Shown: positions 28,402-49,563 of the stretch, in pieces
Position numbering within the stretch: the stretch's first letter is position 1
Layout of the letters: every line of letters begins with the position of its first letter
Assembly (NCBI GenBank): GCA_963713975.1
Contig: OY970218.1
Location: 1,952,001-2,016,000, forward strand
Reading direction: 5' to 3'
From: an uncultured Chloroflexia bacterium
Lineage (GTDB): Bacteria > Chloroflexota > Limnocylindria > Limnocylindrales > CSP1-4
DNA length: 64,000 nucleotides
Notes under the pieces: model-generated
Databases searched by the model: none
Told to the model about the DNA's origin: nothing
The model's input: the letters and a program-made list of their open reading frames with translations, nothing else
Translations under genes and position numbers: made by a program

Positions 28402-28508
28402 CCGTCGGCACCTGTCAGTACGGCCGGTTGCCGCCCGGCCGCCGTCCTTCCGACGCCGGATTGCGTGCCGTTCGGCACGGGAGCCTGCTTGACCGCGTAG
28501 TGGACGCT

Positions 28509-30920
28509 ATGACCATGGCTGCACCTGTTCGACCGGACAGCCGCGTCCCGGCCGCCAGCGATCCGTCCACCGCCCGCACGCTCCACGTGGAGGGCGTGGT
28601 CCAGGGCGTTGGATTCCGGCCGTTCGTCTGGAGGCTGGCGACGGAGCTGGGTCTCGCGGGTCGGGTCCGCAATGCCGCCGGCAGGGTCGAGATCGTGGCC
28701 GCCGGTTCGACCGCCGGGCTGGACGACATGGCCCGCCGCCTCCGGACGGACGCCCCGCCCCGTGCGAGGGTCGAGCGGGTGACCGTGGGCCCGTACACCG
28801 GGGACGCCGCCGCACTGCCCATGCCGTTCGCCATCGACGAGAGCGTGGCGGCCGTGGGTGCCGATCGCCTGTTCCCTCCCGACATCGCCACCTGTGACGA
28901 CTGCCTGCGCGAGCTGCACGACCCCGCGGATCGCCGGTACCGCTACCCGTTCACCAACTGCACGAACTGTGGACCGCGGGCCACGATCATCGACGAGCTC
29001 CCGTACGACCGGGCTCAGACGACGATGCGGGCGTTCCCGCTGTGCGCCGCCTGCGAGGCCGAGTACCGCGACCCGGCGGACCGGCGGTTCCACGCCGAGC
29101 CCGTCGCCTGTCCCGCGTGCGGTCCCCGGCTGGCCTGGTGGCCCACAGGTGCCCCGGCCCCGATCGCCGCCTCCGAGGCCGCGCTCGCCGCGGCCGTCCG
29201 GGAGCTTCGCCACGGGGCCGTGGTCGCGGTCAAGGGCCTGGGTGGGTATCACCTTGCCTGCGATGCCACCGACGTGGAGGCCGTGGGCAGGCTCCGGGAC
29301 CGCAAGCGCCGATGGGCGAAGCCGTTCGCGATCATGGTCCGGGACCTCGCCGCGGCCCGGGACCTGTGCCGGGTGGGCGTCCTCGAGCGCCGCATCCTGG
29401 AGAGCCCCGCCCGCCCCATCGTCCTGCTCGAGGCGCGGCGAGACGGACGTCCAGGTCTGGCGCCCGCCGTGGCCGCCGGGAATCGCCGGTTGGGCGTGCT
29501 GCTCCCGTACACCCCGCTCCACCACCTCCTGCTCGAGGCCGTCGACCGGCCCCTCGTCCTGACGTCGGGCAACCTGACGGACGAGCCTCTTGCCACGGAC
29601 GACGCGGACGCCTCCATCCGGCTGGCGGGCCTCGCCGACGGGTTCCTCGCCCACGACCGCGAGATCAGGGCCCGCTACGACGACTCGGTGACGCGGGTGG
29701 TCGCGCGCCGCGAGTCGGTGGTGCGGCGCGCTCGCGGGTATGCCCCGGACCCCATGCCGCTCCCGGTGGCGACGCCCGTTCCGCTGCTGGCCGTCGGCGC
29801 CGAGCTCAAGCACACGTTCACGCTCGCTCGCGGGGGGCGCGCCCACGTCGCCCCCCACAACGGGGACCTCGAGGACCTGGCAACCCACCGTGCGTTCACG
29901 GACGGACTGGCCCACCTGTCGCGGCTGCTCGCGCTCGAGCCGGAGATCGTCGTCCACGACCTGCATCCGGAGTACCTCTCGACCAAGTACGCGCTGGAGC
30001 GGTTCCCGGCCGCGAAGCGGATCGTCGTCCAGCACCACCACGCGCACGTCGCCTCGTGCGCGGCCGAGCACGGCATCACCTCCCCGTTCCTGGGCGTGGC
30101 CTACGACGGGCTTGGCATGGGCGACGACGGCACGTTCTGGGGCGGTGAGCTGTTCCTCGCGGATCTCCGCGGCTACCGGCGGCTCGGCAGGTTCGGGCGG
30201 GCGCCGATGCCCGGTGGAGCGCTCGCGGTGCGCAAGCCCTACCGGATGGCCCTCGGCTATCTCCTTGGCGCGGAGGCCACCGGCGACAATGAGACCGGGA
30301 TGGAGTTCAACTCCCTGTCGCAAGGCGTCGCAGGGCCGTTCCTCGCCCGCCTCGATCCCCGGGAGGTGTCGCTGGTCGGGACGCAGGTCGCCCGCCGCCT
30401 CAACGCCCCGCTCGCCTCCTCGGCGGGACGGCTGTTCGATGCCGCGGCCGCCCTCCTCGGCATCCGCGACGTGGCGGAGTACGAGGCCCAGGCGGCGATC
30501 GACCTGGAGCTGGCCGCGGGCGATCGACGGCCCGGCGCACTCCCCTGGCGCCTGGCCTGGGCCGACGGCCTGCTGGTGTACGACCCGCGGCCCACGCTAC
30601 TCGCGCTGCTCGACGGACTCGGTGGCGGACGTTCGCCGGGCTCCCTGGCCGCGGGCTTCCAGGAGACGATCTCGGACGTTACGGCCGCGATGCTCGATGA
30701 TGTGCGGAAGCGGACCGGCGTCCGGACCGTCTGCCTGTCCGGCGGCGTGTTCCAGAACCGGCGGCTGGCGTCCGACCTGGTGCGCCGCCTTGCCGCCGAC
30801 GGGTTCGAGGTGTTCATCAATCGCCAGGTTCCCGTCAACGACGGGGGCGTGAGCTACGGACAGGCCGCGGTGGCGGCGGCGAGACTGGGTGCCGGTGACG
30901 CGCCCATCGAGGAGGGCTGA
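28509..30920 (+). CDS. hypF: Hydrogenase maturation carbamoyltransferase HypF
   Basis: GVVQGVGFRPF acylphosphatase domain, two CxxC zinc fingers, KGLGGYHL, HDLHPEY, QHHHAH, SSAGRLFDA, NDGGVSYGQ. Confidence 0.96.
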   Translation: MTMAAPVRPDSRVPAASDPSTARTLHVEGVVQGVGFRPFVWRLATELGLAGRVRNAAGRVEIVAAGSTAGLDDMARRLRTDAPPRARVERVTVGPYTGDAAALPMPFAIDESVAAVGADRLFPPDIATCDDCLRELHDPADRRYRYPFTNCTNCGPRATIIDELPYDRAQTTMRAFPLCAACEAEYRDPADRRFHAEPVACPACGPRLAWWPTGAPAPIAASEAALAAAVRELRHGAVVAVKGLGGYHLACDATDVEAVGRLRDRKRRWAKPFAIMVRDLAAARDLCRVGVLERRILESPARPIVLLEARRDGRPGLAPAVAAGNRRLGVLLPYTPLHHLLLEAVDRPLVLTSGNLTDEPLATDDADASIRLAGLADGFLAHDREIRARYDDSVTRVVARRESVVRRARGYAPDPMPLPVATPVPLLAVGAELKHTFTLARGGRAHVAPHNGDLEDLATHRAFTDGLAHLSRLLALEPEIVVHDLHPEYLSTKYALERFPAAKRIVVQHHHAHVASCAAEHGITSPFLGVAYDGLGMGDDGTFWGGELFLADLRGYRRLGRFGRAPMPGGALAVRKPYRMALGYLLGAEATGDNETGMEFNSLSQGVAGPFLARLDPREVSLVGTQVARRLNAPLASSAGRLFDAAAALLGIRDVAEYEAQAAIDLELAAGDRRPGALPWRLAWADGLLVYDPRPTLLALLDGLGGGRSPGSLAAGFQETISDVTAAMLDDVRKRTGVRTVCLSGGVFQNRRLASDLVRRLAADGFEVFINRQVPVNDGGVSYGQAAVAAARLGAGDAPIEEG

Positions 30921-30923
30921 GCA

Positions 30924-31274
30924 ATGTGTCTGGGGATCCCGGGCAAGGTCACGGAGATCCGCGACGAGGCCGGCCTCGCCATGGGCAAGGTGGACTTCGG
31001 CGGCGTGCGCAAGGATGCCTGCCTCGCGTACCTGCCCGAGGTCGAGCTGGGCGACTACGTCATCGTCCACGTCGGCTTTGCCATCAGCCGGGTGGATGAG
31101 GAGGAGGCTCTCAAGACGCTTGAGATCCTCGGTGAGATGGGCGTCATGGAGCCCGAGCTCATGACGATGGGGCCGGGCATGGACGAGCCCGCTATCGAGT
31201 CCGATGACGCCCCGGACGCCCTGACCTTCGACCCGGCGCTCCGGAGCTCGGCCATGGGGGGCCCAGCCTCGTGA
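30924..31274 (+). CDS. hypC: Hydrogenase maturation chaperone HypC
   Basis: MCLGIPG N-terminus, [12 protein letters not shown]; acidic C-terminal extension. Confidence 0.95.
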
Positions 31275-32428
31275 AATACCTCGACGAGTACCGCGACCCC
31301 GTGCTCGCGAGGAAGCTGCTTGCGGAGATCCACCGGATCACGACCCGGCCGTGGACCCTGATGGAGGTCTGCGGAGGCCAGACGCACACGATCGTCAAGC
31401 AGGGGATCGACGAGGCGCTGCCCGAGGGTGTGCGCATGATCCACGGCCCCGGCTGCCCGGTGTGCGTGACGCCCCTCGAGCAGGTGGACAAGGCGCTAGC
31501 CATCGCCGCCCGCCCCGACGTGATCTTCACCAGCTACGGTGACATGCTGCGCGTCCCCGGCTCCTCGACGGACCTGCTCGCCCTCAAGGCCCGTGGTGCC
31601 GACGTCCGCATCGTCTACAGCCCGCTGGACGCCCTCAAGATCGCGCTCGCGAACCCGGACCGACAGGTCGTCTTCTTCGCCGTCGGCTTCGAGACGACCG
31701 CGCCCGCGAACGCCATGGCGGTGGCGGAGGCGGCCCGCCGCGGCATCGACAACTTCAGCGTCCTGGTGTCGCACGTCCTGGTGCCGCCGGCCATGACCGC
31801 GCTCCTGGACTCGCCCACGAACAAGGTCCAGTCGTTCCTGGCCGCGGGTCACGTGTGCGCCATCATGGGCTGGACCGAGTACGAGCCGATCGCCGCGAAG
31901 TACAAGGTCCCGATCGTGGTGACCGGCTTCGAGCCGCTCGACCTGCTGGAGGGGATCCTCATGGCGATCCGCCAGCTGGAGGAGGGTCGCTTCGAGGTCG
32001 AGAACCAGTACACCCGCGCCGTAACCCGCGAGGGTGTGCCCCTCGCCCAGCAGCAGGTTTTGGCCGTGTTCGAGGTGGGGCCGCGCAAGTGGCGGGGCGT
32101 GGGCGAGATCCCGATGTCCGGGTACCGTCTCCGCGCTGGGTACGCGCGGTTCGACGCCGAGCAGAAGTTCGACGTCGGGGACATCCACACGAGCGAGCAC
32201 CCGGCCTGTATCGCTGGCGCCATCCTGACCGGCGACAAGACGCCGCTCGATTGCGCCGCCTATGGGACCCTGTGCAATCCGCAGAGGCCGCTCGGTGCCC
32301 CGATGGTCAGCTCCGAGGGCACCTGCGCCGCGTTCTTCTCGGCCGGCCGCGGCCTCAACACCGCCGGCGGCTTCTCGCCCGCCCTGCCTCTGGTGCAGGT
32401 CAGCCCATCGATGGAGACGCCGCGATGA
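31271..32428 (+). CDS. hypD: Hydrogenase formation protein HypD
   Basis: [40 protein letters not shown]. Confidence 0.96.
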
Positions 32429-33504
32429 CCGCTTCCGATCGGCCGCTGGTCACGATCGACGCGGACGGCGTCGCGTGCCCGGCGCCCATCCCCGAGGACC
32501 AGCGCGTGATCCTGGGGCACGGGTCCGGCGGACTGCTGTCGGCGGCGCTGTACCGGGACCTGCTTGGTCCGGCCCTGGCTCCTGCCGCGCCGGGCGGTGT
32601 GCTCAACGACGCGGCCGTGGTGGACATCGGCGGGGAGCGCGTCGCGTTCACCACGGATTCGTTCGTCGTGTCCCCGATCCGGTTCCCTGGCGGGGACATC
32701 GGCGAGCTGGCGGTCAACGGCACCATCAATGACCTGGCCATGATGGGAGCGATGCCGACCGCGATCAGCCTCGCCTTCGTGATCGAGGAGGGGCTCCCGC
32801 TCGAGGAGCTGCGCCTGATCACGATGTCGGCAGCGGCAGCGGCCACGAAGGCCGGGGCGCGGATCGTCACAGGCGACACCAAGGTGGTCGGCCGGGGCGC
32901 AGCCGACAGGCTGTTCGTCAACACCGCGGGCATCGGGCTGATCCCGGACGGCGTCGTCCCGTCCGCGGACCGGGCCCGGCCCGGTGACGTGGTCATCGTG
33001 TCCGGCGAGATCGGACTCCACGGAGTGGCCATCATGAGCGTCCGCGAGGGGCTGGAGTTCGAGGTCGAGATCGCCTCCGACACCCAGGCGCTCAACGGGC
33101 TCGTGGCGGCGATCACGGCCGTGGAGCCCGACGTCCACGTCCTCCGCGACCCGACCCGCGGCGGTCTGTCGTCGGCGCTCAACGAGATCGCGGCGTCATC
33201 GCACGTGGGCATGGTCCTTGACGAGCCGGCCATCCCGATCCCGGGCGCGGTTCGTGCCGCCTGCGAGTTCCTGGGCCTGGACCCGCTCCACGTCGCCAAC
33301 GAGGGCAAGCTCGTCGCGATCGTGCCGGCGGCGTCGTCGGCAGCCGTCCTCGCGGCCATGCGGGCCGTCCCGGAGGGTGCCAGCGCCGCCGTGATCGGCG
33401 AGGTCGTCGCGGATCACCCAGGGATGGTGACCATCCGCACGATCGTGGGCAGCGAGCGGATCGTGGACATGCTCGTCGGAGAGCAGCTGCCGCGGATCTG
33501 CTGA
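32425..33504 (+). CDS. hypE: Hydrogenase maturation protein HypE
   Basis: [33 protein letters not shown]-terminal LPRIC. Confidence 0.96.
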
Positions 33505-33523: not shown

Positions 33524-33946
33524 TCAGGCCTCCGGACGGTCGTCCGTCCTGCGGCGCTCCACGATCCGCGAAGCGAGGCGCGCCAGCCCATAGCCGAGGG
33601 CGATCGGGACGCCGAACCAGATCGTGGCGATCGCGCCCGAGAACAGGTCGATCGGCACCGGCCGGCCGTCGAGATACGACATGGCCAGGACGATGATCTG
33701 TCCGGCGATCTGGCCGAGCCCGACCACGAACAGCCCAGTCCAGCCCCGCGTGACGAGGCCCGCGACAGCGCCCGCGATGGCCAGCAGGAGCGGCGAGATC
33801 AGGACGGCCTGCGGCTCGCACACCTTGGACACGCCCTGGCCGACGCAGCCGATGTTCGTGCCCCCGAACACGGACAGCGGGACCACGACCAGGATGATGA
33901 CGAGGGCGATCCAGTCGCGCAGCATGCTGTGGCGGGATGTGTCCAA
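33524..33946 (-). CDS. Small membrane protein (about 4 TM)
   Basis: Four hydrophobic segments; TTG 33946 after GGAGGA (alternative ATG 33925). Confidence 0.7.
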   Translation of the reverse strand: MDTSRHSMLRDWIALVIILVVVPLSVFGGTNIGCVGQGVSKVCEPQAVLISPLLLAIAGAVAGLVTRGWTGLFVVGLGQIAGQIIVLAMSYLDGRPVPIDLFSGAIATIWFGVPIALGYGLARLASRIVERRRTDDRPEA

Positions 33947-40842: not shown

Positions 40843-41511
40843 TCAGGGCAGGGGCGTCTCGAGCACGTAGCCCACGTCGCCCGCCGCGGGGCTGGAAGGG
40901 GCCGGGCTGGCAGGATCCGGCGAGGAGTTCTCGAACAGGTACGTGAACTCCGGGCCGTTGTGGCAGATCCAGCAGTTGTCGCCGCGGCCCCGCATCGACT
41001 CGGGCAACGGCGCGTGATCGTCCACGCCGTGGCAGGTCGTGCATGCCTGGCTGCCGCCCATGTGCTCGGGCCGCGGCGCGGGCGCGCTGTTCTCGCCGGC
41101 CTCGACGCGGGTCTGGTGGCAGATCAGGCAATCGTCCTTGTGCAGGCTCGTGTGGCCCGGGGCCGTCTTGACCAGGCTGCCCTCGGTATGGCACGCGGTG
41201 CAGTTGCGCCACCCGGTGAGCGGATGTGCCATCACGGGGATCGGCCGGGTGCCGACCGTGCCCGAGGTCGTCATGTGGCATGCGTTGCAGTTCGCATCGG
41301 CGGGCATCTCGATTCCGACGGGCGCGAGGGCCATCGCCGATCTCGGGCTCGCCGACGGGCGGGGCGCCGGTGTGGGCGACGGTACCGTCGCCGTGGTCTC
41401 GGCCAGATCGGGGACGGCAACCAGGACCAGGAATGTCCCGACGATCAGGATGCCCAGCGTCAGGGTCGCGGCGGCGATGCGGAACGCGTACTTCGCGACG
41501 CTGCGGATCAC
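40843..41511 (-). CDS. Membrane-anchored pentaheme c-type cytochrome
   Basis: N-terminal TM; five CxxCH (CNACH, CTACH, CLICH, CTTCH, CWICH). Confidence 0.88.
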   Translation of the reverse strand: MIRSVAKYAFRIAAATLTLGILIVGTFLVLVAVPDLAETTATVPSPTPAPRPSASPRSAMALAPVGIEMPADANCNACHMTTSGTVGTRPIPVMAHPLTGWRNCTACHTEGSLVKTAPGHTSLHKDDCLICHQTRVEAGENSAPAPRPEHMGGSQACTTCHGVDDHAPLPESMRGRGDNCWICHNGPEFTYLFENSSPDPASPAPSSPAAGDVGYVLETPLP

Positions 41512-42860
41512 GACTCCACCCCCCGCGGGGCCGTGCCCGAGGCGGCCGCCACCCCGAGCTCTCCATCGGCGGCGACCGGTGCCTCATCGTGGTCGTGGTG
41601 CTGCTTGATCCAGGGGAAGGCGAAGAAGACGTGGACGTCACCCTCACCCATGTCCAGGTACCGCTCGGCGAGCGTATAGCCCAGGGCCATGACGGCTCCG
41701 GCGCCGGCCATGATGGCCATCTCCACCGGGGTCGGGACGTAGACCGCGTAGGGGTACGAGACCGTCCCCGCCCCCGCCGTGATCGGCGCGATCTGGCCCG
41801 CCGCGACGAACAGGAATCGGTCGAGCAAGATCCCCACGAGCACGAGCACGCTTGCGGCGAACACCGGTTGAGGCCGGCGGGCGAGCGGCAGGGCGATGAG
41901 GACGGCCGGGATCACCAGGCCCCCGATCACGCGCAGCCAGAACATGGGAGCGAGCGGCCCGCCGACCAGCGCCACGGTGGCCTCGCGCAGCCCTCGGACC
42001 TCGCCACCGAGCCCGACCGCCATCTGGCGGACGAGCAGCGCCCCGACGGCGGCCAGGCCGACCGCCAGCAGGACGCGGACCGAGGGCAGGGCCACGGACG
42101 CCGCGTGCTCGAAGTCCGCCAGCCGCAGCCGGTGGACGAAGTAGAAGACGATGCCCAGGAGCGCCGTCCCCGCGAGGAAGGCCGAGGCAACCATGGTGAT
42201 CGGGGTGAACGGGCCGTCCCAGAACGCCTTCGCGCCGAGGACCCCGAACACGGCGCCCAGCGTCGCGGGGGCGAGGATCGCCACGCAGGCGGCCGCGGTA
42301 CAGGCGTACTGGTGGATCTTGGGGTGATCGGTGAACATGCTCCACACCTCGACCAGGAGCACCACCAGGTACAGGCCGTAGAACACGCCCATCCACCACA
42401 TCGGCGAGCTGGGCGACGGAACGAGCATGGCCCCGAAGACCATCCGCACCGGGTAGTGGAGATCGAGGGCGATGATCAGGAACGCGGTCGACAGCGAGAG
42501 GACCGCCAGGATCGCGTGACGCTTCTCGAACGGTCGGAATCGCTCGATCCCGAACACCGTGCCCAGCGACGAGGCCAGGCACAGGCCGCTGGTCATGATC
42601 GCGAAGAACACGTAGCCGATGATCATCAGCCCCCACTCGAAGGCGGGCGTGGTCCCGAAGACCTCCCAGCCGGGCGGGATGGCGACCACGGCGGCGACGG
42701 CGCCGACCGTGATGATCGCGAGCAGGAAGCCGAGCCACGCCTGGAGGGCGACCGGCATGCTCGAGATCTCGTGGACCAGCGCTCGAGCGGCCGGTCTCGG
42801 GGCCAGCGGCACCTGGTAGTCCAGGACGTGGAGCTCCAGCGGGTGCGTGGTGGCGTGCAT
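41508..42860 (-). CDS. NrfD/PsrC/DsrP family quinol-interacting membrane protein
   Basis: WGLMIIGYVFF, LDLHYPVR, SSPMWWM, TLGAVFG, ASAFLAG, DRFLFV, PTPVE; about 10 TM. Confidence 0.88.
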   Translation of the reverse strand: MHATTHPLELHVLDYQVPLAPRPAARALVHEISSMPVALQAWLGFLLAIITVGAVAAVVAIPPGWEVFGTTPAFEWGLMIIGYVFFAIMTSGLCLASSLGTVFGIERFRPFEKRHAILAVLSLSTAFLIIALDLHYPVRMVFGAMLVPSPSSPMWWMGVFYGLYLVVLLVEVWSMFTDHPKIHQYACTAAACVAILAPATLGAVFGVLGAKAFWDGPFTPITMVASAFLAGTALLGIVFYFVHRLRLADFEHAASVALPSVRVLLAVGLAAVGALLVRQMAVGLGGEVRGLREATVALVGGPLAPMFWLRVIGGLVIPAVLIALPLARRPQPVFAASVLVLVGILLDRFLFVAAGQIAPITAGAGTVSYPYAVYVPTPVEMAIMAGAGAVMALGYTLAERYLDMGEGDVHVFFAFPWIKQHHDHDEAPVAADGELGVAAASGTAPRGVES

Positions 42861-42864
42861 CGCG

Positions 42865-43839
42865 TCAGGCCTCCTCGGTGACCGGGCCGAGGTAGTACAC
42901 GCGGGGATCAGTGCCGTGCTCAGGGCGATACTGCTGCGGCTGCTGCTCGCGCATGATGGTCGCGATCTCGCTGTCGGGGTCCGCCGCGTCGCCGAACTTG
43001 CGGGCTCCCACCGGGCAGACCTCGACGCACGCCGGCTGCTGGCCGCGGGTGATGCGGTGATAGCACCAGGTGCACTTGTCGGCGACGCCCGGCGTGTCGT
43101 TGGGGGCAAGCTCGCCGGCCGGGACGATATAGCGGGCGCCGTAGGGGCAGGCGACGACGCAGTAGCCGCACCCGATGCACCGTCGCGCGTCCACCAGGAT
43201 CACGCCGTCCTCGGTCTTGTACGTGGCGCCGACCGGGCAGACGACGGTGCACGGCGAGTTGGCGCACTGCATGCACAGGCGTGGCATGAAGAACGAGGAC
43301 TCCACCGGCTGGCCGGCGGCGCCGGGCGCCGTGGAGTCGGCCGGGAAGCCGTCGATGCCCCCGTCGGGCGAGTCCACGTAGACGGTGCCGTCGGCCGTGG
43401 TCGTGTGGCGTTCGATCCAGGTACGGGTGTACTCGGGCTCCTTGGGGACGTGGTTCTCTTCCTTGCACGCGGCGACGCACAGCCCGCAGCCGATGCACGA
43501 TGCCGTGTCGACGACGTAGACCCACTGCTTGCCCGTCGGGTCATACGTGATCGGAGCGATCGCGGGTGCCTCGTCGGCGAACACCGGGAAGTAGCTGCCA
43601 AGGGCAGCCGCACCGACGATGCCGCCCGTCACCGCCAGGCCGAAGCCGAGGAACGCGCGGCGGCTGACGGAGGCCTCGCTGATGGCGGGCGCGAGCTCGG
43701 CGAGCGGGACGAGGTCCGCATCGCCTGGCGCCGCGGCCACCGGCTGGGGCACGGCCACCGGCTGGGGCGCGGGCGCCTCCACGGGCGCGCTATCGGAGAC
43801 GCTCTCGGGTACGTCCCGGGGCGTGGGTGCGTCGGTCAT
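42865..43839 (-). CDS. NrfC/DsrO-like 4x[4Fe-4S] protein with Tat signal
   Basis: SRRAFL Tat motif plus hydrophobic helix; CIGCGLCVAAC, CMQC..PC..VCP, CIGCGYCVVACP, CTWC...CVEVCP. Confidence 0.9.
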   Translation of the reverse strand: MTDAPTPRDVPESVSDSAPVEAPAPQPVAVPQPVAAAPGDADLVPLAELAPAISEASVSRRAFLGFGLAVTGGIVGAAALGSYFPVFADEAPAIAPITYDPTGKQWVYVVDTASCIGCGLCVAACKEENHVPKEPEYTRTWIERHTTTADGTVYVDSPDGGIDGFPADSTAPGAAGQPVESSFFMPRLCMQCANSPCTVVCPVGATYKTEDGVILVDARRCIGCGYCVVACPYGARYIVPAGELAPNDTPGVADKCTWCYHRITRGQQPACVEVCPVGARKFGDAADPDSEIATIMREQQPQQYRPEHGTDPRVYYLGPVTEEA

Positions 43840-44534
43840 CCGGACACCTGGCTGTCTTCGGGCGCCAGGACAGGCCCGCGACCGGCGGCGTGGCACTCGA
43901 GGCATCGCTGATCGTCCTCGGAGCCGGCCGGGTGGCGCTGGTTGCGAGCCTTGAACCCCTCGGGACCGTGGCAGGTCAGGCAGGGCGGCAGGTCCTCGAG
44001 CGGGTGCAGCACCACGGGCGGCCGGTTGGCCGTGCCGGCATGCGGCTCGTGGCACTCGAGACAGGAGGACACGTAGTGCTGGGCCGGCACGATCTGCCGG
44101 ATCGCCTCGGGCCTGCCCGTCGCCTGGGTGTGGCAGCGGACGCAGACCTCATCAGTCGGAACGCGCACCTTGACCGACTCGGCGGTGGTGCCCTCGCCGG
44201 CCTCCACGTGCTCGGCCAGCGCACCGTGACAGCTCTGGCAGCCGATGCCCTCGTGGGCGGTCGAGACCAGGCGGATCTGCTCCGTACCGTGGCAGGCGCC
44301 GCAAACGGACGAGCTCGCGTAGGACAGCGGCTGGGCTGCCCACTGCCTGGCGTTGGTGTCGGTGTTGACCGAGTAGTCGAGGTAGGGGTTCCACGCGATC
44401 GCCGCCCCCGCGAACAGCGCGAGCGAGATGGCGGCGCCGCCGGCCACGATGGCAGCGGCAGCCAGGTACCCCCCCCGCCGGGTGCGCGGCCTGACGGAGT
44501 CCCAGATGCGGCGGAGACGCATGGTGATGCTCAC
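43836..44534 (-). CDS. Membrane-anchored hexaheme c-type cytochrome
   Basis: N-terminal TM; six CxxCH (CGACH, CQSCH, CVRCH, CLECH, CLTCH, CLECH). Confidence 0.88.
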   Translation of the reverse strand: MSITMRLRRIWDSVRPRTRRGGYLAAAAIVAGGAAISLALFAGAAIAWNPYLDYSVNTDTNARQWAAQPLSYASSSVCGACHGTEQIRLVSTAHEGIGCQSCHGALAEHVEAGEGTTAESVKVRVPTDEVCVRCHTQATGRPEAIRQIVPAQHYVSSCLECHEPHAGTANRPPVVLHPLEDLPPCLTCHGPEGFKARNQRHPAGSEDDQRCLECHAAGRGPVLAPEDSQVSG

Positions 44535-45247
44535 AGCGTCGATGGGTTCAGGAGGCCGCGCCGGACGGTGTAGCGCAGGAGCTCGACGCGATCGTGCAGG
44601 CCGAGCTTCTCCATGACGTTGGCGCGGTTGTAGTGGACGGTCTGCTCGGACAGCTGCAGCGTCCGCGCGATGTCGCGCGTCGTGTGGCCGAGTGCGGCCA
44701 TCAGGAGGACCTGGCGCTCGCGCTCGCTCAGCGCCTCGTAGGGGTCGTCGAGCGCCGCGTCGGGGCTGCGACGGACGTACGTGTCCACCATGCGGGTGAC
44801 GATGGCGGGACTCACCCAGGTGTGACCGGCGGCCACGCTCCGCACGGCACCCACGAGGTCGTCCTGCTGGGCCTCGCGGGTGAGGAAGCCGTTGGCGCCG
44901 GCCTTGAGCGCGATCGAGAACTGCTCCGTTGCGCAGCGGCAGTCAAGGGCGATGATCTTGGTGTCGGGACAGGCGGCGTGGATCGCCTCGATCACGTCGT
45001 AGGTGCCGCACGCGAAGCCGCCCGCGCTCTCGCACTCCAGGACGATCACGTCGGGGCTGACTGCCCGGGCCTCTTCAGCGATCGCCTCGCGATCCCGAAC
45101 CTCGCCGATGACGCGCATGTCGGGCTCGCGGTCGATGACCGACCGGAGGGCCGAGCTCAGCATCGGGAAGTCGACGACCGCGAGCATCACGCCCAGGCGG
45201 GTGGCATCGGTGGCGCCATCGGACTTCGGCTCGCGCATGGTGGCCAT
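44531..45247 (-). CDS. NarL/LuxR family response regulator with atypical (pseudo-)receiver
   Basis: LSERERQVL...GHTTRDIA..LQLSEQTV...NVMEKL HTH; receiver reads PDVIVLE in place of D. Confidence 0.85.
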   Translation of the reverse strand: MATMREPKSDGATDATRLGVMLAVVDFPMLSSALRSVIDREPDMRVIGEVRDREAIAEEARAVSPDVIVLECESAGGFACGTYDVIEAIHAACPDTKIIALDCRCATEQFSIALKAGANGFLTREAQQDDLVGAVRSVAAGHTWVSPAIVTRMVDTYVRRSPDAALDDPYEALSERERQVLLMAALGHTTRDIARTLQLSEQTVHYNRANVMEKLGLHDRVELLRYTVRRGLLNPSTL

Positions 45248-45258
45248 CGGATGCAGCG

Positions 45259-45597
45259 TCAGTGGGCCTGGGGCCCGGCGTCGGTGTCCTGATGCCGGTT
45301 GCGGACGACGTATGCCCACCCGAACGGCATCGCGATCATGAACACCGCCACCGCGCCGGCGGCCAGGATCGTGGCCTGCGACCCGAAGGTGAAGTAGACG
45401 AGGTTGAGGACCACGAACGCCACCGCGGACCCGCACCACAGCGTCAGGGTGACAAGACCCAGCCAGGCCGCGATCCGCGCGCCACGGCCGCCCTTCGAGC
45501 CCAGGGCAAACCACACGACGAGGGCGACGATCCCCTCAACCAGGAACAACATCGGCACGATGAGCGCAATGCTCTCCGTGAGTTCGTTGATCTGCAT
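45259..45597 (-). CDS. Small membrane protein (about 3 TM)
   Basis: Three hydrophobic segments; GGGAG RBS before ATG 45597. Confidence 0.7.
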   Translation of the reverse strand: MQINELTESIALIVPMLFLVEGIVALVVWFALGSKGGRGARIAAWLGLVTLTLWCGSAVAFVVLNLVYFTFGSQATILAAGAVAVFMIAMPFGWAYVVRNRHQDTDAGPQAH

Positions 45598-45761
45598 TTT
45601 CGAGTGCTCCCGCCGTCCATCGGCTGCCACTTGCAGTCGATGAGGCCATCGTCGGTGACTTGTCCGGCATTCGGCAGATCGCCTCGGCGAGCAGATTCGC
45701 CTCCGGGTGTGCCCAACTGACCCCACGACCATCAGGTGGGATACCAACGCAGGTCGGAATC

Positions 45762-45777
45762 GGCAACGGCCGTTGCC
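45762..45777. promoter_or_regulatory. Perfect 16-bp palindrome (operator or mtnA terminator hairpin)
   Basis: GGCAACGGCCGTTGCC between the mtnA stop and the cytochrome operon. Confidence 0.35.
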
Positions 45778-45798
45778 TGTACCCCTGACGCGCGTTGC

Positions 45799-46809
45799 CT
45801 ATGCTTGCGTCCGGACGGGAACCTCGCCGTGGTCGGTCCGGATCACTCGACTGTCGGTGACGATCGCGGTGATCAGGCCGGCCGGCGTCACGTCGAAGGC
45901 GGGGTTCAGCGTGCGGGTCCCGCCCGGCGCGATGCGGACTCCGCGGACCGAGGTGACCTCCTCGGGCGCTCGCTCCTCGATCTCGATACCGGCCCCATCC
46001 GATGTCGCGGGGTCGATGGTGGTCTCCGGTGCCACCACGATGAACGGGACTCCGGCGTGGTTGGCCGCGAGCGCGAGGGCGAGGCTGCCGACCTTGTTCG
46101 CCGTGTCGCCGTTCGCGGTGATCCGATCCGCTCCGATGAGCACGGCGTCGGCGAAGCCGCGCGCCAGGACGGACGCGGCCGCACCGTCGACGAGCAGGCG
46201 GAACGGGGCGCCCATCCGGACCAGCTCCCACGCGGTCAGCCGGGCGCCCTGGAGTAGTGGCCGCGTCTCCAGCGCGAGCACCTCCTCCAGGATTCCGCGT
46301 GCGTGCAGCTCGCCGACCACGCCCAGGGCCGTGCCGCGCTCGACCGCGGCCAGCGCCCCGGTGTTGCAGATCGTCATCACGCGCGCGTGCGGGCGCGCCA
46401 CCAGCGACCGGACGAGATCGGCACCGCGAGTCGCCATGGCCGTGCAGGCTGCGATGTCCTCGTCCCGGATCGCCAGGGCTTCGGCAAGCACGGCGCCCCG
46501 CCCCTCGTCCAGTCGGGCAAGGACGCGGTCGGTGCCCCAGGCCAGGTTGACGGCGGTCGGTCGGGCGGCACGCAGCCGGGCAGCTCCCTCGCGCACGGCC
46601 GCCGGATCGGTCGGGTGGAGGCCTGCCAGGAGGGCGACGCCCATGCCGCCAGCGACGCCGAGCGCGGGAGCGCCCCGGACGGCAAGGCTGGCAATGGCGG
46701 CGACCAGGTCGTCCAGCGTGGCGATCCGGAGCACGACGAACTCGTCCGGGAGGCGCGTCTGGTCGATGAGGTGGATCTCGCCGGCCACCCAGTCGATGGT
46801 GCGGTTCAC
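45799..46809 (-). CDS. mtnA: S-methyl-5-thioribose-1-phosphate isomerase
   Basis: LIDQTRLP, VRGAPA, RPTAVNL, TICNTGALA, ETRPLLQGARLTAWEL, GADRI..NGDTANKVG, NPAFDVTP. Confidence 0.92.
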   Translation of the reverse strand: MNRTIDWVAGEIHLIDQTRLPDEFVVLRIATLDDLVAAIASLAVRGAPALGVAGGMGVALLAGLHPTDPAAVREGAARLRAARPTAVNLAWGTDRVLARLDEGRGAVLAEALAIRDEDIAACTAMATRGADLVRSLVARPHARVMTICNTGALAAVERGTALGVVGELHARGILEEVLALETRPLLQGARLTAWELVRMGAPFRLLVDGAAASVLARGFADAVLIGADRITANGDTANKVGSLALALAANHAGVPFIVVAPETTIDPATSDGAGIEIEERAPEEVTSVRGVRIAPGGTRTLNPAFDVTPAGLITAIVTDSRVIRTDHGEVPVRTQA

Positions 46810-46965
46810 TCGGCCATCTTCGCAGGTGCGACACAGGGCTGAGCCCTTCGGCCCCCATGCGTCGGTCGCTTTGGCCGTCGGGTGATGGGGCAATCGCGCG
46901 AAGAATGGCGGGGAGCGTCCATCCCTTCGCCGTCCGCCGGCGATCCGACCGAGGGTCCAGCAGCC

Positions 46966-49563
46966 ATGTCCGTCGATGCGTCCACCGGGCGTGCGCCCGA
47001 ACCGTTCCGTCCGCTGCCCCCGATGACTGCGAGCGCCGCCCGGACCGAGGCGGAGCGATGTCTCTACTGCCACGATGCGGCGTGCACGCGCGCGTGCCCG
47101 ACGTCCATCGACGTCGCCTCCTTCATCCGCAAGATCGCGACCGACAACCTCGAGGGCAGCGCCCGGACGATCCTGGCCGCCAACCCGCTCGGCGCCACCT
47201 GCGGGGCCGCGTGTCCCGTGGAGCGCCTGTGCGAGGGCGCATGCGTGCGCAACGAGATGGATCACCCGATCGCCATCGGACGCCTGCAGCGCCACGCCGT
47301 GGAGTCGTACGCGGCGGCGGGGCACGCGTTCTTCGTGCCCGGCGATGAGGCCGGTGTGAGTGCCGCGATCATCGGCGCCGGGCCGGCGGGCCTGGCCTGT
47401 GCGGCGGAGCTCCGCAAGGCCGGGGTCGGGGTGACGCTCTACGACGCGAAGCCGCGAGCGGGTGGCCTCGGCGACCATGGCATCGTGCCCTGGCGCCTGC
47501 CGCGGGAACTGGTCGAGCTCGAGGTCGCCGAGATCGAGCGCGCCGGCGCACAGCTCGTGCTGGGCACGACCGTTGGGCGGGACGTGGAGGCCGAGGCGCT
47601 GGTCGCCGGGAACGACGCGGTCGTGCTGGCGGTGGGCCTGGGTCACGGGCGGCGCCTGGGGATCCCCGGCGAGGACCAGGATGGTGTCGTCGACGCGCTG
47701 ACGCTCATCGGGCAGGCCATCGATGGTGAGGCGCCGGACACCCTGTCCGGCCGGCGTGTGGGCGTGATCGGCGGTGGCAGCACGGCGTTCGATGCCGCGG
47801 CCGCGGCGGTGCGGCTGGGTGCGTCCGAGGTGACCCTGTTCTACCGGCGGAGCGCCGCCGAGAGCCCGGCCTATCCGCACGCCATCGCCCTGGCTCGATC
47901 GCTGGGCGTCGTGGTTCGCTGGCTGGCCTCACCCGTGGAGATCCTGGGTGACGGCCGCGTCTGCGGGGCGACGTTCGAGACGATGACGCTTGGCGAGCCG
48001 GATGCGTCGGGCCGCCGCCGGCCCATTCCGGTCGAGGGATCCAGGCTCGAGGTCGCGCTGGACGTCGTCGTCCGGGCGGTCGGCCAGGATGGTCCCGCGG
48101 CGATGAGCGGCCTGCTCGCGTCGCTCGACGTGGTCGTCCGCGACGGGGTCGCGGCCGCCGATCCGGCCACCGGCCGGACCTCGAACGCCAAGATCTGGGC
48201 GATCGGCGACATCACCAGCGGTGGCGCGGAGGTCGTCAACGCGGTCCAGGCCGGCAAGCTGGCCGCCCGCTCGATCGTGGACGCGCTCGGCCTCGGCGGG
48301 TCGCGCATCGTTCCGGTCAACCCGGCCAACGCCACCGTCCCGGGCGTGGACCTGTTCACGGACATGGCCGGCATCCGCAGCCCGAACCCTTTCTGGCTGG
48401 CCAGCTGCCCGATCAGCAACAACGCCGAGATGGTCATGCGGGCATTCGACGAGGGCTGGGGCGGCGCCGTCTGGAAGACCGTCGGCGAGCCGATCCGCAA
48501 CGTCACGGCCCGGCTCGGCACCTTCGACTACCACGGCCGCAGGGTGGTCGGCATCAACAATATCGAGCTCATCAGCGACCGCCCGACCGACGTCAACATC
48601 GCGGAGATCCGGGAGGTCAAGAAGCGCTATCCCAACAACGCCGTCGTGATCAGCCTCATGGTCGAGGCGAAGCGTGAGGCGTGGCACGAGATCCTGGCCA
48701 AGTGCAACGACACGGGCGCCGATGGCTACGAGCTCAACTTCGGCTGTCCCCACGGGATGAGCGAGCGCGGCATGGGCGCGGCCGTCGGGCAGGTTCCCGA
48801 CTACGTCCAGATGATCACCGAGTGGGTGATGGAGAAGGCCGAGATGCCCGTCTTGGTCAAGCTCACGCCCAACGTCACCGACATCCGCTTCCCGGCGAGG
48901 GCGGCTCGAGCGGCCAACGCCGACGGAGTGGCCCTGATCAACACGATCAGCTCGCTGGTGGGCATCAACCTCGACAGCTGGGCGCCGCTGCCCGACGTCC
49001 GGGGCAAGGGATCGCACGGCGGCTACGCCGGTCCGGCGGTCAAGCCCATCGCGCTCAACATGGTCTCCCAGGTGGCAGCCGACCCCGAGGTCCGGCTCCC
49101 GGTCTCGGGGATCGGTGGCATCGAGACCTGGCGTGATGCCGTGGACTTCCTCCTGGTGGGTGCGACGACCGTGCAAGTCGGCACCAGCGTCATGCACTAC
49201 GGGTTCCGGTTGATCGACGACCTGGTGGACGGCCTCTCGACGTACCTCCGCGCGAAGGGCCTCCACAGCCCGTCGGAGCTCGTTGGCAAGGCGCTGCCGA
49301 CGATCACCGACTGGGGGCACCTGGACCAGGAGTTCCGGCTGCTCGCGAAGATCGACCAGGATCTCTGCGTCCACTGCAACCTGTGCTACACGGCCTGCAA
49401 CGACGGTGCCCACCAGGCGATCCGCTTCGAGGATGCCGGCGGGACGACGCGGCTGATGGTCGAGGACGACTACTGCGTCGGCTGCAAGCTCTGCCAGTAC
49501 GTGTGCCCGGTCGAGGACTGCATCACGTTCGAGGAGCTGGAGGGCGCCGCCTCCATCCACTGA
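46966..49563 (+). CDS. preTA: Dihydropyrimidine dehydrogenase, fused PreT-PreA (PydX-PydA) single chain
   Basis: N-terminal half: CLYC...C..CP Fe-S, IGAGPAG, IGGGSTAFD. C-terminal half: NPFWLAS, GWGGAVWKT, NNIELIS, ELNFGCPHGM, KLTPN, two CxxCxxCxxxC; no internal stop. Confidence 0.9.
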   Translation: MSVDASTGRAPEPFRPLPPMTASAARTEAERCLYCHDAACTRACPTSIDVASFIRKIATDNLEGSARTILAANPLGATCGAACPVERLCEGACVRNEMDHPIAIGRLQRHAVESYAAAGHAFFVPGDEAGVSAAIIGAGPAGLACAAELRKAGVGVTLYDAKPRAGGLGDHGIVPWRLPRELVELEVAEIERAGAQLVLGTTVGRDVEAEALVAGNDAVVLAVGLGHGRRLGIPGEDQDGVVDALTLIGQAIDGEAPDTLSGRRVGVIGGGSTAFDAAAAAVRLGASEVTLFYRRSAAESPAYPHAIALARSLGVVVRWLASPVEILGDGRVCGATFETMTLGEPDASGRRRPIPVEGSRLEVALDVVVRAVGQDGPAAMSGLLASLDVVVRDGVAAADPATGRTSNAKIWAIGDITSGGAEVVNAVQAGKLAARSIVDALGLGGSRIVPVNPANATVPGVDLFTDMAGIRSPNPFWLASCPISNNAEMVMRAFDEGWGGAVWKTVGEPIRNVTARLGTFDYHGRRVVGINNIELISDRPTDVNIAEIREVKKRYPNNAVVISLMVEAKREAWHEILAKCNDTGADGYELNFGCPHGMSERGMGAAVGQVPDYVQMITEWVMEKAEMPVLVKLTPNVTDIRFPARAARAANADGVALINTISSLVGINLDSWAPLPDVRGKGSHGGYAGPAVKPIALNMVSQVAADPEVRLPVSGIGGIETWRDAVDFLLVGATTVQVGTSVMHYGFRLIDDLVDGLSTYLRAKGLHSPSELVGKALPTITDWGHLDQEFRLLAKIDQDLCVHCNLCYTACNDGAHQAIRFEDAGGTTRLMVEDDYCVGCKLCQYVCPVEDCITFEELEGAASIH

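Follow-up and report, generated by a model that had tools for sequence, protein, structure and literature searches.

A putative NrfD-type quinol:multiheme-cytochrome oxidoreductase without an adjacent catalytic subunit in uncultured Chloroflexota

Introduction

Modules that combine a multiheme cytochrome, an iron-sulfur (FeS) protein and an NrfD-type membrane subunit without a catalytic subunit are already known from Geobacter (Cbc4), Methanoperedens and MBNT15. Here we compare with them a six-gene operon (g1 to g6) on the minus strand of a 64-kb stretch of DNA (contig OY970218.1, positions 1,952,001 to 2,016,000; hereafter the window) from an uncultured Chloroflexia bacterium of the Limnocylindrales. 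Cbc4 (CbcSTU, GSU0068-0070) is described as a proposed quinol:cytochrome c oxidoreductase (10.1101/2025.04.14.648717). It shares with the operon a linker-anchored multiheme cytochrome c, a 4x[4Fe-4S] protein, an integral membrane subunit and the lack of a catalytic subunit; its CbcS, however, is a single tetraheme cytochrome with an NrfH/CymA core, whereas the operon encodes two cytochromes (6 and 5-8 hemes) with marginal NrfH scores. The operon also differs from Cbc4 in its monoderm host and its own regulator, and CbcU is likened to g5 by description, not by sequence. The Methanoperedenaceae menaquinone:cytochrome c oxidoreductases with NrfD and the FeS/NrfD/multiheme clusters of MBNT15 and Melioribacter belong to other hosts and are likewise compared by description. 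The Methanoperedens NrfD has been reported to be close to Dehalococcoidales sequences, and thus other Chloroflexota may hold related modules. An earlier reading of the window from its sequence alone (the original prediction) had presented the missing catalytic subunit as unusual; given that these modules are also catalyst-free, this was overstated.

We propose that the operon encodes a membrane quinol:multiheme-cytochrome oxidoreductase of four subunits, with no catalytic centre of its own and with its own regulator, and we put the probability of this reading at roughly 0.6. The architecture taken alone we regard as very likely. The operon would work like the known modules, yet it fails at least one defining feature of each of Cbc4, alternative complex III (ACIII), Qrc, Dsr, Nrf, Hyb and the molybdoenzymes. 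The Limnocylindria lineage is reported to be monoderm (10.1101/2021.08.23.457424), in line with the host supposed in the original prediction, and to occur across most habitat categories (PMC10608941).

Results

Architecture of the operon

The six genes occupy 40843-45597, and the successive gaps from g1 to g6 measure 11, -4, -4, 4 and -4 bp (Table 1). Together they carry 11 CxxCH motifs, six in g3 and five in g6, while ~0.001 is expected by chance per 450 aa and the remaining proteins of the window contain one motif in 19,241 aa (54 genes were called in the window with a simple gene caller). The original prediction had proposed this set of overlapping or abutting same-strand genes with 11 motifs, and coordinates and gaps bore it out. 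Its descriptions of the single proteins also agreed with what we found: a first gene with three transmembrane (TM) helices, an atypical LuxR regulator, two cytochromes with N-terminal anchors (one hydrophobic segment each) and a common P-V-x-x-H-P-L unit, a Tat-exported 4x[4Fe-4S] protein and an NrfD of about 10 TM helices. Beyond these, the analysis revealed the four-cysteine receiver of g2, its putative operator and the variation of g6 between 5, 7 and 8 hemes. The g3 start codon is either GTG 44534 or ATG 44522. g1, with its three hydrophobic segments, had no match in Pfam or NCBIfam and belongs to no known family.

Table 1. Positions of the operon genes and of the upstream palindromic boxes in the window
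Feature	Coordinates	Strand	Basis
g1: 112-aa membrane protein with three helices, accessory or regulatory	45259..45597	-	hydrophobic segments
g2: NarL/LuxR-type regulator, pseudo-receiver with four conserved Cys	44531..45247	-	receiver and LuxR helix-turn-helix (HTH) match
g3: hexaheme cytochrome c, N-terminal anchor or signal peptide	43836..44534	-	CxxCH count
g4: NrfC/DsrO/TtrB-type 4x[4Fe-4S] subunit, own twin-arginine signal	42865..43839	-	profile, Cys motifs
g5: NrfD-family quinone-reactive membrane subunit, ArrC/ArxC-type site residues	41508..42860	-	PF03916
g6: membrane-anchored multiheme cytochrome c on Pro/Ser/Thr linker, 5 hemes	40843..41511	-	CxxCH count
Palindromic box CRACG-N2-CGTYG, copy 1, tandem, putative g2 operator	45786..45797		tandem, upstream
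Second copy of the box, a perfect palindrome 22 bp away from the first	45764..45775		palindrome count
Degenerate third box copy	~45745-45756		read off sequence

Co-conservation and absence of an adjacent catalytic subunit

We compared the operon with the best 80 of at least 633 confirmed matches (at least 637 raw) in GTDB genomes to the pattern [MI]WWMG[VTA][FL]Y, a biased subset that splits into 59 close loci (54-89% identity) and 21 distant ones (32-39%). The close loci come from Chloroflexota, save two titled Actinomycetota (L046, L058). Relatives of g5 numbered 647 among 8,000 scored candidates, the named ones being Chloroflexota or Ca. Limnocylindrales; 345 of 3,860 candidates were related to g3 and 238 of 1,958 to g6. 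Where a close locus had enough flank, the core g3-g4-g5-g6 was kept in order in 47/48 cases and all six genes in 35/47, so the gene order that the original prediction had singled out for comparison across related genomes is indeed conserved. Gene by gene, g4 was present in 52/53, g3 in 49/50 and g6 in 54/55 of these loci, g1 and an upstream g2 in 39/49 each, and an additional g2 copy stood downstream of the operon in 9/49. The genes that border the operon, by contrast, differ freely among close loci.

No molybdoenzyme, NiFe large subunit or TorD was detected in the window by tblastn (five Mo, one NiFe and two TorD queries). Nor did any of the 59 close loci contain a dimethyl sulfoxide (DMSO)-family molybdoenzyme or TorD (tblastn, 998 kb; 39 loci with at least 5 kb on each side), whereas the identical Mo queries, as a positive control, detected 9/21 distant loci. 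The earlier statement that no catalytic subunit is encoded nearby therefore stands. A Pfam scan of 295/325 cluster representatives included all 234 from close loci, among which there was no recurring catalytic neighbour; the last 30 representatives, all from distant loci, and singletons shorter than 130 aa fell outside it. Redox neighbours were scattered: a group-3-like hydrogenase in L044, a multicopper oxidase ~8 kb off in L031, an FeS protein in five loci and, at one end of L042, an incomplete PF00174 protein. Multiheme proteins with CxxCK were not detected in the close loci.

In 5/59 close loci (L029, L036, L047, L048, L059) the neighbours are more multiheme cytochromes, and several of these five also have heme-synthesis or ResB/CcsA/CcdA maturation genes. 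A decaheme cytochrome with an NapC/NrfH-like N-terminus occurs in L047 (1097-2794), L048 (3681-5309) and L029 (934-2364); it is related to a Desulfobulbaceae protein (27%, E 7e-42) and presumably resembles Geobacter ImcH. Big cytochromes with doubled CxxCH motifs and long non-heme stretches, candidate cell-surface partners, are found in L048 (10287-12014), L059 (791-2698) and L036 (11260-11946). A conserved 437-aa FeS protein is encoded upstream on the opposite strand in L042, L043, L050, L052 and L053, the subclade whose g6 has eight hemes and in which LuxR occurs in two copies.

Genes that we take by their sequence motifs to be hypF-hypC-hypD-hypE lie at 28500-33504 on the plus strand, opposite to the operon and 7.3 kb from it. 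The original prediction, which gave this distance as 7 kb, had suggested that the operon could partner a hydrogenase matured by them. The operon would then be a HybAB-like quinone link for a NiFe hydrogenase, and JGI does label many homologues 'HybB-like'. This part of the prediction was not supported. The window has no hydrogenase structural gene; hyp genes occur within the flanks examined in 6/59 close loci (hypA alone in L053), and a NiFe large subunit in 1/59, where it is Vhu/group-3-like and stands beyond the operon with an opposite-strand gene between. The operon also lacks the NiFe large and small subunits of Hydrogenase-2 (HybOABC), g4 scores 107 against the HybA cut-off of 263 and g5 has no match to the HybB model. 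Few hydrogenases per genome are reported for the lineage (10.1101/2021.08.23.457424). We consider a hydrogenase link highly improbable.

Predicted docking of the hexaheme cytochrome g3 on the FeS subunit g4

All 16 Cys of g4 are invariant in 50/50 orthologues. Its export motif reads SRRAFL; the twin arginine (RR) is found in 42/50 orthologue open reading frames (ORFs), and the other eight are gapped there, their called starts being later. The best profile for g4 was DsrO (188.9 bits against a cut-off of 200), and PsrB was matched with E 3.8e-43. Among the FeS ORFs examined, seven associated with Mo subunits and two of Arx loci begin at the first cysteine motif, whereas five associated with cytochromes carry RR-x-FL.

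In gene order, g3 takes the position held by the Mo subunit in relatives. We modelled g4 (residues 98-320) with g3 (45-218) and four hemes in three runs. The pair scored 0.90 and the best control 0.00, contact agreement between runs was at least 91% and the partner predicted local distance difference test (pLDDT) value at least 79. The original prediction had envisaged a model of all four subunits as a continuous wire; the g3-g4 part of it docked, while g5 and g6 were outside the model. The modelled interface is formed by g4 113-128 and 257-277, i.e. the first and last Cys groups, with C118 beside the heme-3 motif of g3 and V274 beside the heme-2 motif. These two groups we take to hold the Mo-facing clusters, on the basis of an alignment with EbdB and of known structures. 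In that alignment the third Cys group (C221-C224-C227) falls on the EbdB 3Fe-4S motif, whose cluster is described as the one farthest from molybdenum (PMC8840923). As the interface involves the first and last groups and the third is the Mo-distal one, the predicted docking site of g3 is the end of the FeS subunit usually turned towards the molybdoenzyme, in agreement with the gene position of g3.

Could the operon instead be the membrane arm of a Psr/Arr/Dms-like molybdoenzyme whose catalytic subunit is encoded elsewhere? In the 9/21 distant loci detected by the Mo queries, a PhsA- or ArrA-like subunit stands beside the FeS protein and NrfD, and database names of homologues include 'molybdopterin-containing oxidoreductase family membrane subunit'. 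Against this, no such subunit was detected in the 59 close loci, g4 bears its own RR motif and the modelled g3 site covers the Mo-facing end, and we regard the molybdoenzyme arm as very unlikely.

Heme ligation and relatedness of g3 and g6

g3 has six CxxCH motifs in 46/46 orthologues (a set selected for at least five), and all 12 His are invariant in the same 46. Since these His fill all axial positions, six bis-His hemes are suggested. Hemes 4-6 of g3 match hemes 1-3 of g6 (33% over 83 columns, E 1.8e-5), and the shared P-V-x-x-H-P-L unit is a portion of this longer match. g6 is built from a repeating two-heme unit, and its heme number is 5 in 35, 7 in 4 and 8 in 8 of 47 relatives. H96, H120 and H124 of g6 are near-invariant, H150 is kept in 35/47 and M173 in 46/47. 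M173 sits where later repeats carry His, so that one His/Met heme is likely; g6 would then hold four bis-His hemes and one His/Met heme. One relative (P0246) combines NrfD, a helix, a linker and eight hemes in a single chain that is apparently in frame at the protein level, which ties g6 to the NrfD membrane subunit. Other NrfD-cytochrome fusions (P0052, P0107, P0049, P0243, P0268) look like frameshift read-through and were excluded.

Is one of the cytochromes the catalyst itself, as in MccA or NrfA? A profile match (E 6e-9) relates hemes 1-3 of g3 to the N-terminal region of octaheme nitrite reductases, and g3 has a conserved K191 (44/46) and g6 its M173. However, the nitrite-reductase match is limited to profile positions 71-135, the axial positions are filled by His in g3 and by His plus M173 in g6, and the operon has no CxxCK or open-heme catalytic multiheme protein as in NrfABCD and MccACD. 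Moreover, both proteins are ~220 aa long, with scant space for a substrate domain. Among the readings weighed here, this is the least probable.

Searches by fold and profile added little to this picture. The NrfH model gave 17.8 and 16.2 bits for g3 and g6 against a cut-off of 134.2. AlphaFold2 models were weak (g6 pLDDT 68.6, predicted template modelling score 0.37; g3 70.8 and 0.40); with them Foldseek returned nothing at E 0.001, and the VIA-align matches were rejected as matches of the anchor helix (Z at most 4.5). For an ActA-type fold the profile matches were weak, and the fold searches were either empty or dominated by the anchor helix. Matches in the ESM Atlas were generic clusters of response regulators and of c7-type cytochromes.

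Placement of g5 in the NrfD family

g5 matches PF03916 with 97.8 bits and has 9 TM helices by hydropathy at the threshold used and ~10 by alignment to ActC. A PF03916 subunit of 8-10 TM helices that adjoins a four-cluster FeS subunit is the make-up of an NrfC/NrfD module. Y83, D/E133, S152 and R348 are kept in 50/50 orthologues, and Y83/D133/S152/R348 have the spacing of ArrC Y57/E107/S126/R324. K113-R114 and Y161 are also conserved, with the spacing given for ArrC (group B) in the site-residue list of Calisto and Pereira (PMC8076601). All these residues have counterparts in the NrfD proteins of two arsenic-oxidoreductase loci on plasmids, which we take to be Arx loci by gene order and arsenic context. 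H115 and H183 are invariant in 50/50 and, among the sequences compared, found only in the g5 clade; they are probably residues of a cytoplasmic proton path, heme b ligation being the other option.

Trees were built with FastTree (133 rows) and IQ-TREE (55 of those rows). The close g5 sequences, P0248 and P0246 formed a single clade (100/100, stem 0.52) outside the ArxC, Mo-associated and triheme-associated groups, with deep branching and sister group left open in both trees. The clade sits within the ArxC/ArrC-like family, whose other members adjoin molybdoenzymes or triheme cytochromes. The original prediction had proposed a phylogeny with PsrC, HybB, DsrP, ActC and CbcU, to see whether g5 nests in a clade always found beside a catalytic subunit. 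It does not nest in one; of the named references, though, none is in the trees, and characterised DsrP, QrcD, HybB, NrfD, PsrC and ActC were compared by profile scores. g5 scored far below the cut-offs of DsrP (35.5 against 350), HmcC (24.2 against 550) and QrcD (31.8 against 570) and had no match to the NrfD and TtrC models. A single-sequence search of the PDB recovered no NrfD, whereas a profile search did.

Besides the 9/21 distant loci with a Mo subunit, 6/21 have a c7-type triheme cytochrome and an FeS protein without a molybdoenzyme, which suggests that partners were swapped more than once in the family. Seven distant loci of Desulfobulbaceae/Geobacteraceae (L066, L068-L070, L075, L079, L080) carry two or three NrfD copies, and six of them add a c7 triheme cytochrome and an FeS protein that is incomplete or bears RR; none has a molybdoenzyme, and they are a second catalyst-free variant of the family. 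L067, L071-L074, L077 and L078 carry PhsA-like molybdoenzyme-FeS-NrfD clusters, several of them after a monoheme cytochrome and a DUF3373 protein.

How does the operon compare with the established complexes? The nearest outside relatives (32-39%) often belong to ArxABC/ArrABC and Psr/Phs loci, and the g5 site residues match ArrC; the operon, however, has no Mo subunit or TorD, places a hexaheme cytochrome in the Mo position and forms a separate clade. With DsrJOP, Nhc and Hmc it shares a cytochrome, an FeS protein and NrfD, but no DsrM/K or other membrane cytochrome b was present in the loci scanned, and the operon does not hold the DsrMKJOP set with its triheme DsrJ. ACIII and Qrc share with it a 10-TM NrfD, four FeS clusters and a 5-6 heme cytochrome with an anchor. 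In contrast to QrcABCD, the operon has no cofactor-less, Mo-like QrcB, and in contrast to ACIII it has no molybdopterin-like B domain (ActB fusion), ActD, ActE or ActF; ACIII has a 3Fe-4S cluster where g4 has four intact 4-Cys motifs, and the cytochrome is modelled at the distal clusters.

The regulator g2 and its putative operator

g2 has the receiver and LuxR HTH of the NarL/VraR family (NarL match E 2e-32), a fold by which it can also be likened to the atypical regulators BldM and WhiI. Yet all canonical NarL/FixJ phosphorylation residues (Asp, Ser/Thr, Lys) are replaced: the phospho-Asp position is E71 (45/49, Ala in 4), the switch Ser/Thr position is D/E102 (48/49; D102 here) and the Lys position is R124 (49/49). 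C72, C80, C103 and C105 are kept in 45, 45, 46 and 45 of 49 sequences. The full pattern was present in 39/49 operon copies and in 0/12 other regulators of the same loci. Because the four Cys flank the former phosphorylation residues in sequence, a metal or Fe-S site is suggested, and g2 probably senses redox or metal state via these cysteines, not phosphorylation. No description of a four-cysteine LuxR receiver or of the six-gene operon was found in a literature search that did not take in most subscription papers and supplementary gene tables. A report on sediment members of the lineage (PMC13212565) names cytochrome a single time, without this module, and a cable-bacteria paper (PMC13047784) contained nothing of relevance.

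An unbiased palindrome count upstream of the operon yielded the box CRACG-N2-CGTYG, in tandem at a spacing of 19-23 bp, mostly 21-22. Its core ACG-NN-CGT was present upstream of 39/40 LuxR-bearing and 0/8 LuxR-less loci, and at least two copies were found in 32 of the 40 LuxR-bearing upstream regions compared to 11/618 regions of other genes. This fixed-core count was preferred over a position weight matrix since the latter was trained on the same upstream regions; L037 was left out of it because its upstream region falls within a truncated LuxR gene, and L031 was added. In the window, the pattern alone is not enriched (4 found, 3.7 expected), and 45764-45797 is the only tandem pair. g2 likely autoregulates the operon through predicted binding to these tandem palindromes. 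A sigma-70 promoter scan found none, and Rfam gave no match over 39-48 kb of the window.

Neighbouring genes

On the same strand, mtnA (45799-46809, minus) ends 201 bp before g1; it is a common upstream neighbour in the closest loci only. A fused dihydropyrimidine dehydrogenase follows at 46882-49563 (plus), with a GltD-like part and PreA (612.7 bits against a cut-off of 335), and pyrimidine/purine catabolic genes and an NCS1-like permease often border the operon in the closest relatives. The gene at 33524-33925 (minus) encodes a small membrane protein that has no Pfam match but a conserved C-x8-C loop; in 15 close loci a member of its family is found no more than 10 kb from the operon, in some of them immediately upstream of g1. 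Other flanks encode a heliorhodopsin (L007, 15646-16455) and a RuBisCO-like protein (L022, 586-1734).

Discussion

In the proposed mechanism, g5 would oxidise quinol, presumably menaquinol as in Chloroflexota, at the outer membrane face. Electrons would enter the membrane-proximal cluster of g4, pass its four clusters and reach g3, which would take the site held by the molybdoenzyme in Psr/Arr/Arx complexes. g6, which varies in length and would be held next to NrfD by a flexible linker, may be a second outlet, and the hemes would deliver the electrons outside the membrane to soluble or mineral Fe(III), humics, shuttles or respiratory enzymes encoded elsewhere. g2 would bind the tandem palindromes, autoregulate the operon and sense redox or metal by its cysteines. 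That Fe(III) in soluble or mineral form, humics or shuttles are the acceptors we suggest only tentatively.

A minority possibility is that the conduit serves as a minimal complex III whose electrons go not to minerals but to a cytochrome c oxidase, NirK, NosZ or a comparable enzyme encoded elsewhere. Cytochrome c oxidase is reported in nearly all genomes of the lineage, and nirK/nirS and nosZ as common in the supergroup (10.1101/2021.08.23.457424); sediment members are described with nitrate-respiration genes (PMC13212565). The layout of g6, with an anchor and a probable His/Met heme, is ActA-like; ActA itself is given four bis-His hemes and one His/Met heme (PMC5928083). Yet across the 59 loci the neighbours of the operon include no recurring oxidase or nitrogen-oxide reductase (the multicopper oxidase is found only in L031), the operon has no ActB-like, ActD, ActE or ActF gene, and the variation of g6 from 5 to 8 hemes would fit a loose partner better than a fixed dock.

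Reverse flow, as in Qrc or Arx, would have the hemes gather electrons from Fe(II), reduced humics or other cells and reduce the quinone pool. The two plasmid relatives are presumably Arx-type loci, and mostly bis-His hemes are often of low potential. Qrc is described as taking electrons from cytochrome c3 to menaquinone (PMC13059093). On the other side, quinol oxidation has been proposed for Cbc4 and for the Methanoperedens modules, which are composed alike, and the window in our reading holds mostly sugar-uptake and catabolic genes, which suggests a need for an electron outlet. We find reverse flow unlikely.

Several points nevertheless weigh against a quinol:multiheme-cytochrome oxidoreductase as proposed here. 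Electron direction is not readable from NrfD, since Qrc runs in reverse and the family has both Arr- and Arx-type loci. A set of eleven hemes tethered to the membrane does not necessarily reach across the cell wall. The flanks are visible for at most 10 kb, with at least 5 kb on both sides in 39/59 loci, and a partner could be encoded in trans, for instance elsewhere on the 3.62-Mb contig; the sole locus without the core, L056, has a lone partial NrfD. The complex model covers g3 and g4, with g6 outside it. The score mark was reached by 116/157 solved and 2/215 mismatched pairs, but this calibration is only rough for g3-g4, whose own alignments and four riding hemes lie outside it. As the g3 profile weakly matches ActA (8k9e_A, E 4.9e-4), the model may contain a memory of ACIII; it is, however, no simple copy, because the ACIII cytochrome meets the membrane-proximal cluster, at the opposite end (PMC5928083). 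Finally, the association of operator and LuxR (Fisher p 3e-5) is inflated by relatedness, with loci counted as independent.

A bolder version of the proposed oxidoreductase is a branched wire. The hexaheme cytochrome would have replaced the molybdoenzyme of an Arr/Arx-like ancestor, g6 would sit ActA-like at the proximal cluster, and the whole would serve extracellular respiration in a widespread monoderm lineage, while a LuxR protein with a dead phosphorylation pocket and a four-Cys Fe-S/metal site would act on tandem CRACG-N2-CGTYG as an undescribed one-component sensor. Taken together we consider this doubtful.

With this operon, a monoderm lineage that is widespread but uncultured would have a concrete module for respiration. 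As the module is labelled in databases as parts of hydrogenases or molybdoenzymes, pathway inventories may miscount it. Its design resembles the quinone wiring of iron reducers, but it has its own parts and an unusual cysteine-rich regulator; the modelled replacement of a catalytic subunit and the regulator with its putative operator are what raise its interest. g2 is a testable candidate for a new redox-sensing receiver, with a DNA site already predicted. If the g3-g4 model is true, the operon would show a heme wire swapped in for the catalytic subunit on an NrfCD module. It would also be a small system for testing the role of the distal FeS clusters, which in ACIII have no known role or partner (PMC5928083).

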